DNA from: Patescibacteria group bacterium
Lineage (GTDB): Bacteria; Patescibacteriota; Minisyncoccia; Minisyncoccales; Staskawiczbacteraceae
Reading direction: 5' to 3'
Assembly: GCA_018895235.1 (NCBI GenBank)
Contig: JAHIOM010000036.1
Span: forward strand, 1-50,628
Length of the DNA stretch: 50,628 bases
Within the stretch, counting starts at the first letter, position 1, and the number at the start of each line of letters is the position of its first letter. The notes under the pieces are model-generated. The model was given only the letters and a program-made list of their open reading frames with translations, did no database searches and was not told where the DNA came from. A program made the position numbers and the translations under genes. Shown piece by piece: positions 1-50,628 of the stretch.

Positions 1-286
1 CCTTCCAATCTACAAAAACATCATCATAGGTGTTGGCTTTTACAGAAATCGGCTGGGGATCGGTTATTTCCTTGCCGTTATTTAAAAATGAAACATAGCC
101 ATAAACGTCAGTATCTCCTATATTAAAAACCCGGGCAAAAATCCTGATGGTTTCGCCGTCAAATGGATTATCTTTAGAAAGAGTGATATCAGTATCGGCA
201 ATAGAGAGATCTGTCTTAGCAAAAACCCCAGTAGTCCCGCCCAAAAGGACCGCGAAAACAGCCAGAAATATGAATAACTTTTTCAT
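1..286 (-). CDS. Partial secreted protein (signal peptide plus CARDB/Ig-like domain), runs off the window start
   Basis: Manual translation from CAT at 284-286: MKKLFIFLAVFAVLLGGTTGVFAKTDLSIADTDITLSKDNPFDGETIRIFARVFNIGDTDV..., open to position 1. Confidence 0.7.
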   Translation of the reverse strand, partial: MKKLFIFLAVFAVLLGGTTGVFAKTDLSIADTDITLSKDNPFDGETIRIFARVFNIGDTDVYGYVSFLNNGKEITDPQPISVKANTYDDVFVDWK

Positions 287-415
287 TAATATATTTTACT
301 TGTTATTTAAGATTGAAGCAAGTCTCTCGGCAAGCCCAGAATAAGTAAAATAAGTTGAAATTTTCTTGAAAAAATATCTTCGAAATGATATTATTGAGAA
401 AATAATAATTGATTA

Positions 416-469
416 TTTACATGTTCGAACTACGATAGTATAATAAAATTAATAATAAACGTAGTTCGA
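416..469 (+). promoter_or_regulatory. Sigma70 promoter with overlapping inverted-repeat operator
   Basis: TTTACA(416-421)-17 bp-TATAAT(439-444); perfect 10-bp inverted repeat TCGAACTACG(425-434)/CGTAGTTCGA(460-469) just before ATG 471. Confidence 0.6.
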
Positions 470-470
470 T

Positions 471-1160
471 ATGTTATTAAAAACCGAAGAAAAAGAGAAA
501 GCAATAAACCTAAGGAAGAAAGGATTTTCTTATTCTGAAATTTTAAAACGAATTCCAGTTGCAAAATCAACCCTGTCTTTATGGTTACAGAGCGTAGGGT
601 TAAGCAAAAAACAAAAACAAAGATTAACAGAAAAGAAAATTGCCTCCGCATTAAGGGGGGCGAAAAAGAAAAAAGAAATTAGAATTGCGCTTACAGATGA
701 AATAAAAAACAAAGCAGAAAAGGAAATAGGTAAATTAACAAAGAGAGAATTGTGGTTAATTGGAGTAGCATTATATTGGGGGGAGGGTAGTAAAGAAAAA
801 GATAATCATCCTGGATCTCCTGTTAAATTTTCTAATTCAGATCTAAACATGATTAGGATTTTTCTTAAGTGGCTTTTAGAAATAATCAAAGTTCCCAGAG
901 AAAAAATTTATCCAGATATCTATATTCACGAAAGTCACAGAAGCAGGATAGACAAAGTAATAGATTATTGGGCCAGTAATACAGTTTTTTCTAAAAGTGA
1001 GTTTAAATATATTTATTTTAAAAAAAATAAAATAAATACAAAAAGAAAAAATATTGGAGATTCTTATTATGGTTTATTAAGAATTTGTGTGAAAACTAGC
1101 TCTACTCTAAATAGAACAATTGCTGGATGGATACAAGGTATTAATAAATGTAGTCGATAG
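471..1160 (+). CDS. N-terminal HTH plus LAGLIDADG-like domain protein, tRNA-adjacent
   Basis: HTH-like segment GFSYSEILKRIPVAKSTLSLW; LAGLIDADG-like helix IGVALYWGEGSK; ends 4 bp before tRNA-Gln. Confidence 0.6.
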   Translation: MLLKTEEKEKAINLRKKGFSYSEILKRIPVAKSTLSLWLQSVGLSKKQKQRLTEKKIASALRGAKKKKEIRIALTDEIKNKAEKEIGKLTKRELWLIGVALYWGEGSKEKDNHPGSPVKFSNSDLNMIRIFLKWLLEIIKVPREKIYPDIYIHESHRSRIDKVIDYWASNTVFSKSEFKYIYFKKNKINTKRKNIGDSYYGLLRICVKTSSTLNRTIAGWIQGINKCSR

Positions 1161-1164
1161 TTAT

Positions 1165-1235
1165 TCCGGGGTCGTCTAATGGTAGGACAACAGTTTTTGG
1201 AACTGTATATTTAGGTTCGAGTCCTAACCCCGGAA
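1165..1235 (+). tRNA. tRNA-Gln (TTG)
   Basis: Acceptor stem TCCGGGG/CCCCGGA, anticodon arm ACAGT-TTTTGGA-ACTGT, T-loop GGTTCGAGTCC; CCA not encoded. Confidence 0.95.
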
Positions 1236-1297
1236 CTAAACAAGCTAAAAGGTTTAATTTAAAAATAGGTGTTCTTTTAAAAGAAAGGAGACAAGAG

Positions 1298-1624
1298 ATG
1301 ACAAAAGAAAATCTTACACCCCTACAGATGGTAATTCTTGAAAAAATAGTGAAGAACTCGATAACTGCCATTAGCTACTATCATCCAAAAGAACAAATTG
1401 GCAAATTGACAAAAAGTTATGACGAAATACTAAGGGCCCTTGAATCTCTTAGCCGTGATTTTCAAATAATTAGACTAGATCCCGTATTGAAACTTAAGAG
1501 AAAGTTTTGGTTTAAAACAAGCTGCGGATACAGAGTGGATTTAGAAAAAGCAAAAGAGTTATACGATTCTTTGAAACCAGAAAACTCAGAACCAAAAAAA
1601 GAAAAAAAAGAAGGAGGTAGTTAA
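1298..1624 (+). CDS. Hypothetical protein (possible winged-helix)
   Basis: 108-aa ORF, no recognised motif. Confidence 0.55.
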   Translation: MTKENLTPLQMVILEKIVKNSITAISYYHPKEQIGKLTKSYDEILRALESLSRDFQIIRLDPVLKLKRKFWFKTSCGYRVDLEKAKELYDSLKPENSEPKKEKKEGGS

Positions 1625-1804
1625 ATGACCGAAGAAATAACTCCGCTCACACCAGAGCAAAAAGAAAAAATCTGGAGAGCAATTTCCGACCGCACGTTAC
1701 CGGATGATCGTGATCCTCAAGAAATTATTGCCGAAGATTATAATGGCGATGAGGATAGATATCTGCGCGTAATGGCAAATTGGCACAATATGAAACTTGA
1801 TTAA
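1625..1804 (+). CDS. Small hypothetical protein (59 aa, not in ORF track)
   Basis: MTEEITPLTPEQKEKIWRAISDRTLPDDRDPQEIIAEDYNGDEDRYLRVMANWHNMKLD; ATG abuts the previous stop and a terminator follows. Confidence 0.6.
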   Translation: MTEEITPLTPEQKEKIWRAISDRTLPDDRDPQEIIAEDYNGDEDRYLRVMANWHNMKLD

Positions 1805-48621: not shown

Positions 48622-48697
48622 GCCCCTATAACTCAATTGGTAGAGTAACAGCCTTTTAAGCTGTGAGTTGCAGGTTCGAGTCCTGCTGGGGGCACCA
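48622..48697 (+). tRNA. tRNA-Lys (TTT)
   Basis: GCCCCTA/TGGGGGC acceptor stem, ACAGC-CTTTTAA-GCTGT anticodon arm, GGTTCGAGTCC, encoded CCA. Confidence 0.95.
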
Positions 48698-50215
48698 AAT
48701 TGGACTTCGTGATTTTTTGTGGGGGGAAGCAGAGGTTTGCTCGCCGCGCCTGCGGGCGCGGCTCGCAAGGAATTGGGCGGTAAAATCAAACGGCGGGACG
48801 AAATCCCAAGACACAATTTTTTCGGAAATGAGGCGGTTCGTTCCAATTTTTTGCGCAAAATGAGCAATCTCTTGCGGAGATTGCTCCGAGGCGATTATTC
48901 CCGCGTAAATTAAGGTGTTTATGTATTCCCGCAATGGTTCGTTCCACCCGCTCATTCGCTTTCGCAGAAGCGTATCCTGCTCGCCCTTCAAGGCGATTTT
49001 TTGTTGCACCAAATTTTCTTTTTTTCGTCTGTAAGTGTCCTCGTCAATAAGATTGTCTAAATATCCTTCAAGCAATTTATCCAGTTTTTCTTGAAGGGCG
49101 AGAATCTTTTTTCTGTTCGCTTCTGCGAAAGCGTCCGCTGATTGGATTTGCAATTTTTCTTCACGCTCCAATTTTTCCAACATTTCTTTTGACCAATCGG
49201 CAGGCAAAGCAATTGTTTGCGACTTTTCAATGATTTGCTTTTGCAGTTCGTTTTCTTGGATATACTTTTCGGCGCAAGCCCCGTGCTTTCTGGTGCAACG
49301 GTAATAGCGATATAAGCCCCCATTTCCTTTCGCGAATTGCGCCGTGAACATGGAACCGCACGAGCAATTGAAAAGTCCGACAAACGGAAAATCGTGTCGT
49401 TTCTTGCTCTTGCGGGGCTTGCGCCTGTTCGCCAAAACTTCCTGCACCTTCGCAAACAATTGCTTTGTTATGAGCGGGCGGTATTTGCCTTCGTGCGCTT
49501 CGCCGTTCCAGCGCATAATTCCGATATAGCGGTCATTGGTCAAAAGATTTTCAATAGAATAGTTGGAGCGTTCTTTTCCACCGCCAAGATCGGCGAGGCG
49601 AGCCGAAATTGATTTGAGTGTATGTCTGCCAGTCGCGAACTCCTCGTAGATTTTCTTTACGATTTTGGCCTCTTTCGGCTCTGGCACGATATTTCGCAAG
49701 CGATGGTCGTAAATGTAGCCGAAAGGTTTTTGTCCGGGCCATTCGCCTCGCCGCAGCTTGGCGCGGTTCCCTCGCCGAACATTTTCGGCCAGATTGTCCA
49801 CATAGTATTTGGCGTTTGATAATCCGATAGCTAAAAAGAATTTCCCTGACGGATTATTTTCAAAAGCGAAAGTTGGAAATTTCAAACCGCCAAGTTTTCC
49901 GGTATCCAAAAGGTATATCAAACGCCCGCCGTCTACGGAATTTCTGGACAATCTGTCCGGATGCCACGCCAAAATACCGATGAGATGAGGAAGACCGCCA
50001 TCAATTTTATTGAGCATGGAATTGAAAATTTCCCTGCCCGGAACTTTGGCGGTTTTCTTTTCAACAAATGTTTCTATGATTTCCAAACCTTCTTTTTCCG
50101 CATATTCTTTCAATTCCGTAAGTTGCGCTTCCAAACTTAAAACTTGGCGGTCTTCCTCATCGGTGCTTTTTCTGATGTAGAGAAAATATTTTGTTGGTTG
50201 TTGTGGTGTGTTCAT
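48656..50215 (-). CDS. Large serine recombinase whose C-terminus runs antisense through tRNA-Lys
   Basis: YIRKSTDEEDRQ, DRLSRN, recombinase domain, Zn-ribbon (CSCG..YYRC..C), coiled coil; ends WCPQQDSNLQLTA. Confidence 0.92.
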   Translation of the reverse strand: MNTPQQPTKYFLYIRKSTDEEDRQVLSLEAQLTELKEYAEKEGLEIIETFVEKKTAKVPGREIFNSMLNKIDGGLPHLIGILAWHPDRLSRNSVDGGRLIYLLDTGKLGGLKFPTFAFENNPSGKFFLAIGLSNAKYYVDNLAENVRRGNRAKLRRGEWPGQKPFGYIYDHRLRNIVPEPKEAKIVKKIYEEFATGRHTLKSISARLADLGGGKERSNYSIENLLTNDRYIGIMRWNGEAHEGKYRPLITKQLFAKVQEVLANRRKPRKSKKRHDFPFVGLFNCSCGSMFTAQFAKGNGGLYRYYRCTRKHGACAEKYIQENELQKQIIEKSQTIALPADWSKEMLEKLEREEKLQIQSADAFAEANRKKILALQEKLDKLLEGYLDNLIDEDTYRRKKENLVQQKIALKGEQDTLLRKRMSGWNEPLREYINTLIYAGIIASEQSPQEIAHFAQKIGTNRLISEKIVSWDFVPPFDFTAQFLASRARRRGEQTSASPHKKSRSPIWCPQQDSNLQLTA

Positions 50216-50340
50216 AATTTTATATTTTGGCGTGGCTTATGTTCGGCGAGGAAATGAAAAATCGCCTCAATCCCGCAAAGCGGGATATTTTGCGCAAAAA
50301 ATCGGAATAAAAATTTATTTTTATACATAACTTCGTTATG

Positions 50341-50532
50341 ACGAACCGCCTCATTTCCGAAAAAATTGTTTCTTGGAATTTCGTCCCGCCGTTTGATTTT
50401 ACCGCCCAATTCCTTGCGAGCCGCGCCCGCAGGCGCGGCGAGCAAACCTCTGCTTCCCCCCACAAAAAATCACGAAGTCCAATTTGGTGCCCTTTGTTTG
50501 AAAATGCGCGAACCTTCTTTGAACGAAACTGA
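50341..50532 (+). pseudogene. Inverted copy of the recombinase 3' end with an alternative, attP-like C-terminus
   Basis: 152-bp inverted repeat of 48690-48841 with 2 mismatches seen, continuing as WCPLFENARTFFERN*. Confidence 0.75.
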
Positions 50533-50628
50533 CGCTCCGCCCCGCCGCCGCTCGCTGACGCTCGCCACCCCGCAAAAAAGTTTTCTTCGCATTTTTTATT
50601 TTGCGCGCGCCCGATTTTTTCTTCTAAA

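Follow-up and report, generated by a model that had tools for sequence, protein, structure and literature searches.

Why should the gene for a site-specific recombinase be enclosed between long inverted repeats, one of which has its edge inside a tRNA gene, so that the two copies of the repeat offer the protein two alternative C-termini? This question is raised by one end of contig JAHIOM010000036.1 (contig C36; 50,628 nt) from a member of the Patescibacteria, whose 837 kb genome is assembled in 40 contigs (GCA_018895235.1); the whole contig is the window considered here. A first-pass annotation, made from the sequence alone, had read the left copy of the repeat as a hybrid of tRNA gene and mobile element and the right copy as an unrecombined attP-like site. 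It had suggested that inversion of the intervening segment would swap the C-terminus of the recombinase, and had offered as an alternative that the right copy was left behind by a second, related element.

The region is probably the recombinase module of a ~6.5-kb integrative element which encodes a large serine recombinase (LSR), is inserted at positions G71-C72-A73 of tRNA-Lys(UUU) and carries a second, inverted attP. In the free form of this element two long attachment regions, each consisting of a P arm of ~150 nt, a core and a P′ arm of ~260 nt, would lie in inverted orientation and part the recombinase module from a cargo module. Entry via the attP copy located inside the 3′ end of the recombinase open reading frame (ORF) would give attL (tRNA and P arm) and attR (P′ arm and host DNA). 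The second or 'spare' attP, made up of the right repeat copy and the next ~25 nt, would be left intact and inverted. Two inverted attP regions, of which one is used for insertion, would account for both pairs of inverted repeats that are described below. The anatomy of the element was derived from repeat finding, ARAGORN (for tRNA genes), Pfam, Rfam and a comparison of overlapping contig ends. Relatives were collected in a scan of one genome per species, which gave at least 575 matches, nearly all in Patescibacteria; layout was scored on the best 80. Recombinases at least 85% identical to that of the window are termed the window lineage, and come partly from metagenome contigs.

The inverted repeat and the recombinase gene

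Repeat finding reproduces the 152-nt inverted repeat of the first-pass annotation (repeat 1, 48690–48841 and 50341–50492), which is 99% complementary with two mismatches, near 48805 and 48813. The two arms are the sole copies of this sequence in a genome-wide comparison. The outer edge of the left arm consists of the last 8 nt, GGGCACCA, of tRNA-Lys(UUU), and the edge of identity proposed earlier is thus confirmed by the tRNA gene that ARAGORN places at 48622–48697. Translation of the ORFs likewise confirms that the two copies lead to different C-termini. The ORF at 48656–50215 on the minus strand ends ..SPIWCPQQDSNLQLTA and a stop in antisense tRNA, giving an integrated tail that reads ..WCPQQDSNLQLTA, while the right arm is open on the plus strand into ..WCPLFENARTFFERN and a stop, in an ORF (50338–50532) that begins MTNRLISEK.. 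and ends SPIWCPLFENARTFFERN. The patchy homology noted inwards of the repeat is also found: it reaches 95% between 48841–48861 and 50287–50307 and ~77% over 60 nt, and is broken by a 34-nt insert and by hairpins that differ between the copies. The inner extension, the hairpin and the 34-nt insert upstream of the gene are all also present in a 92%-identical sister element, L065. As had been remarked, the region is richer in GC than its flanks (0.43–0.51 across the region, against 0.35–0.41 in neighbouring genes and 0.363 genome-wide).

The 519-residue product of the minus-strand ORF has the domains of an LSR: matches to Resolvase (PF00239, residues 11–159, E=2.3e-18), Recombinase (PF07508, 180–264) and Zn_ribbon_recom (PF13408, 277–331). 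It has a resolvase-type catalytic domain with a nucleophilic serine, and R15-K16-S17 is invariant in five paralogues in the genome. The closest solved structures are those of the A118/LI integrase (4kis, 6dnw) and the SPbeta integrase (9dxh); residues 164–360 align to the C-terminal domain of the former and residues 9–405 to the latter. By sequence alignment only, the heptad-like residues ~335–420 correspond to the coiled-coil region of the SPbeta integrase. On this domain content the protein is a member of the LSRs.

Attachment sites and the C-terminal tail

The site of exchange can be placed by comparison with L065, which lies at tRNA-Ile(tat). Its similarity to the element of the window stops exactly after ..CCAATTTGGTGC (that is, after TGGTGC), as expected if the left copy is the tRNA/element hybrid that the first-pass annotation had taken it for. 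Both the tRNA-Lys of the window and the tRNA-Ile of L065 read G71-C72-A73-CCA. The sequence GGGCA is common to three sites: the tRNA edge, the junction of the right copy (repeat 1′) with a second inverted repeat, X, and the junction of the far copy, X′, with host DNA. The end of similarity to L065 and the common GGGCA together place the crossover in GCA at 48692–48694 (G71-C72-A73). Within it, CA is more likely than GC to be the crossover dinucleotide, because a palindromic GC would presumably give no polarity. The ORFs of the window lineage read IWC followed by P, A or V at the junction.

Read across the spare attP, the recombinase frame leads into a native tail which is conserved in ~50 diverse elements as [ILV][ILV]xx[AIV]RT[FYH]F[EKQ]xN, with a stop after 12–20 codons. 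Integrated ORFs run into antisense tRNA in place of this tail. As read from these two sets of frames, insertion is shown to swap the conserved native tail (..LFENARTFFERN) for antisense tRNA, attP lying inside the recombinase ORF. The 64-codon frame that covers the spare attP in the window is probably not a gene, the family having no conserved start codon there. It was rejected as an expressed mini-protein, since an in-frame ATG is present in just 12 of 54 elements and stops are usually found just upstream. An ATG at the repeat edge of the spare copy occurs in the window's element alone among the 54 scored, and by eye also in the spare copy on contig C6.

The P′ arm beyond the spare copy contains a second indication of attP. 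A CGAAC box is essentially invariant there, and its reverse complement, GTTCG, is the sequence of the tRNA T-loop. The arginine codon in this box is CGA in nearly all elements, as against 16% of arginine codons in the recombinase ORFs. With the repeat edge as common origin of measurement, the P′ box lies further out than the T-loop by 5 in 23 elements, by 6 in 16 and by 4 in two (41 elements); in the window the distances are 21 nt for the P′ box and 16 nt for the T-loop. In serine integrases, the motif of the zinc-ribbon domain is shifted 5 bp toward the centre in attB compared to attP (PMC3783163). The offset between CGAAC and T-loop matches this attP/attB offset, and by this sequence criterion the right copy plus ~25 nt is an attP. 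The family-conserved tail and a box lying 5–6 bp further out than the T-loop both bear out the earlier description of the right copy as an unrecombined attP-like site. The assignment of the left copy and tRNA as attL, and of the far X′ and host DNA as attR, is well supported by the same sequence comparisons.

A third T-loop-like box, GG[AC][AT]CGAACC, is located at 48836–48845 and at the equivalent place in 67 of 68 relatives. It encodes a conserved KIG[ST]N with rare codons, at or just inside the inner repeat edge; in one subfamily it pairs with a downstream GGTTCGT as a hairpin, and it could be an accessory binding site.

Recognition of tRNA genes

Recombinases of the window lineage are found at tRNA genes for Arg(ccg, gcg, tcg, tct), Leu(gag), Tyr(gta), Lys(ctt, ttt), Ile(tat) and Val(tac, gac). 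The occurrence of near-identical enzymes at at least 11 tRNA genes suggests that recognition occurs via features common to tRNAs and that the host-side half-site is unconstrained. It may be that the enzyme reads the T-loop and acceptor end of the tRNA as the B half-site, and the CGAAC mimic, 5–6 bp further out, in the P′ arm, with the B′ side left free. A free B′ side together with reading of the T-loop would explain the breadth of targets. Three metagenome loci of the window lineage (L154, L155 and L220) have an ORF ending in neither antisense tRNA nor the native tail, and ARAGORN finds no tRNA downstream of them.

Extent of the element

The sequence beyond the window, whose inspection the first-pass annotation had recommended, shows that the element carries on, with a second inverted-repeat pair around a 4.2-kb restriction-modification cargo. 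From 5 nt inside repeat 1 to its end (50488–50628), C36 is identical to the end of contig C6, where the same sequence abuts host-like sequence; C36 and C6 thus diverge 5 nt inside the repeat edge. The attR junction in the tail of C6 reads ..AAACAAAGGGCA followed directly by TATGGAAG. Contig C24 (4475 nt) has a 141-nt terminal inverted repeat and overlaps the ends of both C36 and C6 by 21 nt. In the simplest reading of the contig ends, the order is C36, X (261 nt), 4193 nt of unique sequence, X inverted, and C6 reversed, with attR ~4.7 kb beyond the end of the window and an element of ~6.5 kb. The 21-nt join of C36 and C24 is confirmed by an independent metagenome contig, L204, which runs unbroken from the 3′ end of a 92%-identical recombinase through X into the end of C24. 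The C24 cargo encodes a C5 cytosine methyltransferase, an R.HinP1I-like endonuclease, Vsr and a 537-residue protein without a Pfam match; no candidate gene for a directionality factor was recognised in it.

Gene order in relatives is consistent with an insertion of this size. All 29 relatives compared have tRNA-Lys(ttt) after dnaJ, and none of them has a recombinase at the tRNA-Lys site. Next after the tRNA come homologues of the C6 genes (74–87% identical protein) in several relatives and, in others, tRNA-Ala(ggc), a gene located on the far side of C6. These orders point to an ancestral arrangement dnaK, dnaJ, tRNA-Lys, C6 genes, tRNA-Ala, into which ~6.5 kb was inserted after tRNA-Lys. An insertion sequence or transposon bounded by terminal inverted repeats was considered and rejected: the right copy of repeat 1 is internal to the 6.5-kb insertion, and the conserved gene order resumes at the C6 tail. 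In the closest, element-free relative (genome G003, locus L036, ~2670–2700) the tRNA-Lys is followed by CCAAATT, the same as the first bases of the window arm after A73; this may be the scar of a past insertion, or chance.

Conservation of the layout

The layout is repeated within the genome. Five paralogous recombinases (39–41% identical to that of the window) each lie inside their own element-specific inverted repeat of 84–152 nt with 86–100% identity, and each converges on a tRNA gene whose last 3–8 nt form the outer repeat edge. The five targets are Lys(ttt), Ala(ggc), Ala(tgc), Cys(gca) and a tRNA with a group I intron. At ~136 nt past the upstream repeat copy each paralogue contig breaks off within a second repeat, and this continues into a contig with terminal inverted repeats. 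The five elements and their cargo contigs make up roughly 4% of the 837 kb genome and account for many of its 40 contig breaks.

Fully assembled loci in other genera of the same family and order have the order tRNA, repeat 1, recombinase, repeat 1′, X, 1.8–3.7 kb of genes, X′, and in these loci the two repeat pairs overlap by 3–7 nt. Among the best 80 relatives, ~70 have the repeat pair and 57 a convergent tRNA; of those whose upstream sequence is long enough, ~20 also have the abutting X pair. The two copies of the repeat appear to change together: a substitution that distinguishes the window element from L065 appears, mirrored, in the two arms of either element, and across 19 window-lineage elements the arms within an element are on average 94.9% identical, compared to 86% for equivalent arms of different elements, some arms being mosaic.

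This recurrence bears directly on the possibility that the right copy derives by decay from a second, head-to-head element, or is an assembly or amplification chimera, either of which is highly improbable. Such an origin would fit the position of the right copy, 136 nt from the contig end, and the indels of its inner part relative to the left copy; those indels are, however, conserved in the 92%-identical L065. The layout with element-specific repeats is found in five of five paralogues, ~70 of 80 relatives and the complete chromosomes CP060229.1 and CP174360.1, and as a rule of the family it leads us to discard the remnant that the first-pass annotation had proposed. As regards a chimera, contig ends held in common in this genome are all exactly 141 nt long, indicating an assembly graph with k=141. 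The longest exact run in the 152-nt repeat is shorter than this, being interrupted by the two mismatches, so that unique k-mers support the path across both arms. The mismatches between the arms, spanned by unique 141-mers, and the recurrence of the layout in many independent assemblies rule a chimera out.

Several further observations concern the elements of this genome and their relatives. Contigs C17, C24, C26, C30 and C32 (4.5–5.7 kb) have the same 141-mer at both ends in inverted orientation, and appear to be cargo modules between perfect inverted repeats of 150–261 nt; their orientation is not resolvable from the assembly, and the flanks of C17 were not found. The cargo on C30 includes a further, divergent methionyl-tRNA synthetase (158–1648, minus strand), with 47% identity to the one encoded chromosomally on contig C10, and that on C26 (1552–4342) includes two histidyl-tRNA-synthetase-like genes, 25% identical to the C10 copy. 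The target of the fifth element, L008 on C27, is missed by a default tRNA scan: with introns allowed, ARAGORN reports a tRNA (Thr tgt) at 1758–2054 on the minus strand, split by a 224-nt group I intron (RF00028, 73.5 bits). Four loci labelled Bacteroidota (L097, L100, L103 and L110) encode homologues 42–44% identical that converge on tRNA-Ser or tRNA-Pro and have no long inverted repeat, suggesting that tRNA targeting may predate the spare attachment site. On metagenome contig Ga0209211_10030568 (L200, 1–3931), a recombinase 95% identical to that of the window is joined to the outer arm of another element (tail ..KIVRTHF..), and beyond it lie two more inverted-repeat pairs, a second recombinase and a tRNA-Lys(ttt); the arrangement resembles a tandem or mosaic array that arose by exchange between elements.

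Orientation and flipping of the recombinase module

If attL and the inverted attP were to exchange at their cores, or if the element were to be excised and to re-enter by its other attP, the recombinase module would be reversed. In the reversed orientation the native tail would be restored and the gene would lie downstream of the tRNA promoter. Both orientations occur in nature. Across two scans, ~100 loci are convergent with the tRNA and six (L080, L098, L161, L199, L214 and L217) are flipped, with the tRNA upstream and co-directional; next to the tRNA in each of the six is an arm coding, in antisense, for the tail that is usual after integration. In another six contigs the recombinase ORF ends in a native tail, those of the window lineage being L173 (..VWCPLFKNARTFFERN and stop) and L204 (..IWCPLFENARTFFERN and stop).

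The closest comparison is provided by L213 and L214, two loci from two samples whose recombinases are 96% identical in protein sequence to that of the window. They occupy one tRNA-Tyr locus in opposite orientations; 121 nt of host flank and the tRNA-Tyr are identical, as is the recombinase module over 1508 nt. The arms of L213 differ from each other at 12 positions, and the tRNA-side arm of L214 matches the spare type of L213 at 12 of 12, the first being 27 nt from the tRNA end. An arm that is wholly of spare type from 27 nt onwards places the exchange at or next to the core, and for the same reason a flip by homologous recombination within the long arms is rejected. A second pair of opposite orientations at one locus was sought in comparisons of L161 or L199 with canonical loci; these are only 77–93% identical and do not represent the same populations. 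As judged from these contigs, flipping or re-insertion occurs in the sister element, and the C-terminal swap anticipated by the first-pass annotation has natural examples in L213/L214 and in the native tails of L173 and L204. We infer that the window copy could flip in the same way and that its tail might affect activity.

The product seen in L213/L214 would be alike for inversion between attL and the inverted attP and for excision followed by re-entry, and these data do not separate the two routes. The anatomy described above could therefore be correct without any inversion in situ: a free circle would enter via either attP, ORF-internal entry would dominate or persist better, and the repeat would be a by-product. 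We consider this unlikely. The reaction attP × attB is the sole LSR reaction that takes place without a directionality factor (PMC3783163), the product of re-entry is structurally identical to an inversion so that L213/L214 fits either, and unequal persistence of the two orientations once integrated would suit the strong bias towards the convergent one. This route would, on the other hand, need excision and a return to exactly the same tRNA in the same population, in a lineage that uses at least 11 tRNAs; the recombinase of L213/L214 is frameshifted, and a free circular form was not identified.

The same pair of loci bears on the suggestion that the long arms are not recombination substrates once the element is integrated and instead have a structural role, as bidirectional terminators or insulators that part the tRNA from the recombinase gene, in control of the recombinase mRNA by a long antisense or double-stranded RNA, or as a fold of single-stranded DNA during uptake. 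At 84–261 nt the arms are far longer than an LSR half-site of ~25 bp; they are rich in GC hairpins and evolve in concert, and equivalent positions in the two copies hold hairpins of different sequence, all of which such a role would accommodate. A scan for consensus promoters and terminators, however, gave sites no more numerous than in shuffled sequence, and apart from the tRNA (and the group I intron elsewhere) no Rfam family was found in the repeats or X arms. In L213/L214 the exchange at the core indicates use of the spare site, whose outer 25 nt carry an attP-type box at attP-type spacing. A purely structural role is thus very unlikely. One of the hairpins, ATCCCGC-loop-GCGGGAT, occurs at 50263–50282 in the window and at ~120–137 in L003 (C6), in the spare-copy regions only and not in the coding copies.

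A more speculative extension of the integrated element with a spare attP, for which we see only a small chance, is that the tail swap acts as a built-in directionality lock in place of a separate directionality factor. Loss of the ..ARTFF.. tail would leave the enzyme unable to act on free attP/attB, or to excise, and the element would be parked; its intact spare attP would then be harmless amid the tRNA targets of the chromosome. A rare core exchange with the spare attP would place a full-length enzyme behind the tRNA promoter and re-arm the element. A lock of this kind, if true, would explain the ~15:1 bias in orientation.

A number of points weigh against the proposed element as a whole or parts of it. 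The ratio of ~100 convergent to six flipped loci is a strong bias, and the module is not a freely toggling switch. L213 (~3375) and L214 (~8970) have in common a frameshift of +2 nt, in an A-run near recombinase codon 325; their exchange would need an enzyme acting in trans, or predates the frameshift. The A-run insertion itself could represent inactivation or a slippage-prone tract. To our knowledge LSRs do not recombine attL with attP, and the flipped state may come only via excision and re-integration. The proposal offers no explanation for duplicated arms of 80–260 nt that are kept near-identical, when a half-site needs ~25 bp. No recognisable symmetric motif was found in the P arm or on the B′ side, the offset motif being present in the B and P′ halves only. 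The tail overlaps a DNA site that is itself constrained, and its conservation is no proof that the peptide matters. Finally, the 261-nt length of X and the link from X to C24 are deduced from contig-end overlaps.

Feature coordinates

The features of the region are collected in Table 1.

Table 1. Features of the recombinase module in the window and of four further elements in the same genome (positions refer to C36 unless another contig is named).
Feature	Position	Strand	Remarks
tRNA-Lys(UUU), CCA encoded	48622–48697	+	ARAGORN (ttt); Rfam tRNA, 73.3 bits; proposed integration target and B half of attL
T-loop GTTCG of tRNA-Lys	48674–48678	+	Read from sequence; 16 nt before the core; proposed as the motif recognised in the B half-site
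Core GGGCA	48690–48694		tRNA positions 69–73; common to attL, spare attP and attR
Left arm of repeat 1	48690–48841		Element P arm within putative attL; encodes recombinase residues ~459–508 on the minus strand
Degenerate inward extension of left arm	48842–48900		Within the coding sequence; has conserved box GGAACGAACC, which specifies GTN in ..KIGTNR, and a hairpin of 10 bp (gagcaatctc/gagattgctc)
Large serine recombinase gene, 519 aa	48656–50215	−	ORF and Pfam; last 11 codons are antisense tRNA-Lys
Region upstream of recombinase gene	50216–50340		Degenerate extension of right copy, ~50256–50307; hairpin atcccgc..gcgggat; 34-nt AT-rich insert, ~50307–50340
Right arm of repeat 1	50341–50492		P arm of the putative intact, inverted second (spare) attP
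P′ half-site of spare attP	50493–50517	+	Putative; CGAAC box 50509–50513, ending 21 nt beyond core TGCCC (50488–50492)
64-codon open frame over spare attP	50338–50532	+	Copy of the recombinase 3′ end running into the native tail, ..WCP LFENARTFFERN and stop
First 141 nt of second inverted repeat X (long P′ arm)	50488–50628		Equals C6 5372–5512 at 100%
Further element, locus L003	C6:1–1840		At tRNA-Ala(ggc)
Further element, locus L006	C20:1–1940		At tRNA-Ala(tgc)
Further element, locus L007	C22:1–1900		At tRNA-Cys(gca)
Further element, locus L008	C27:1–2054		At intron-containing tRNA

Comparison with known systems

The recombinase shares its triad of resolvase, recombinase and zinc-ribbon domains with phage-type large serine integrases such as those of A118/LI, SPbeta (SprA/YokA), phiC31 and Bxb1, and in those integrases, too, the distal half-site motif lies further from the crossover in attP than in attB (here by 5–6 bp). 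Unlike them, the window family has attP within its own ORF, so that the C-terminal tail is swapped on integration. It always carries a second, inverted attP, and its arms are 80–260 nt long compared to ~25 bp. It appears to target nearly any tRNA, by way of T-loop and acceptor end, and to place no constraint on the B′ side, and it has no evident gene for a directionality factor. In the integration-dependent immunity of mycobacteriophages, reportedly described by Broussard et al. in 2013, attP is said to lie inside the repressor gene, integration changing the C-terminus and the behaviour of the repressor. That system differs in using a tyrosine integrase, in affecting a repressor and in having no duplicated inverted attP.

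The nearest parallel in principle is provided by the SSV-type 'suicidal' tyrosine integrases of archaeal viruses and plasmids (SSV1, pTN3, pT26-2), which are alike in having an attachment site within the integrase gene, a tRNA target and a gene that is altered on integration. In these systems the alteration has been proposed to act as a control on excision, and according to a review no self-disrupting recombinases are known outside archaea (PMC8371274). The SSV-type enzymes are tyrosine recombinases of archaea whose gene is split into two large parts, whereas the window family has a bacterial serine recombinase that loses only its last 12–20 codons and keeps a spare intact copy of this end.

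Serine invertase switches (Hin, Gin, Cin and Pin; PinQ, PMC12529663) also combine a serine recombinase gene with a segment bounded by inverted repeats, and they resemble the present case in that both orientations are found in nature, here in a sister element at one tRNA-Tyr locus in two samples. Invertases are proteins of ~190 residues with a C-terminal helix-turn-helix, act at 26–34-bp sites with a Fis-dependent enhancer and are not integrative. The window encodes a 519-residue LSR, its repeats are 152 nt long, its sites would be attL and attP, and the orientation is biased ~15:1. A switch of the Hin/Gin type is ruled out by the 519-residue LSR and the 152-nt repeats.

Tycheposons and other cargo islands that target tRNA genes are small modular elements, of which 910 of 937 use tyrosine recombinases and a minority large serine recombinases (bioRxiv 10.1101/2020.12.28.424599). 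In the searched text of that preprint, inverted-repeat modules, an attP inside an ORF and a spare attP were not found. A literature search found no description of the present recombinase-element family.

Biological significance

The family is very common in Patescibacteria and apparently undescribed. Its elements explain many of the contig breaks in Patescibacteria assemblies, and they appear to serve these ultra-small bacteria as one of the main means of acquiring defence systems and spare aminoacyl-tRNA synthetases. They extend the repertoire of large serine integrases with an ORF-internal attachment site, an obligatory second inverted site and what appears to be recognition of the universal tRNA T-loop, one half-site being free. 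An integrase with a single conserved half-site and a possible self-contained control of directionality would be of interest for genome engineering. The family would be a bacterial counterpart to the self-disrupting recombinases that have been stated to occur only in archaea (PMC8371274). Should the tail swap indeed act as a lock, these elements would be a bacterial equivalent, built on a serine recombinase, of the archaeal 'suicidal' integrases, and one that can be reset.

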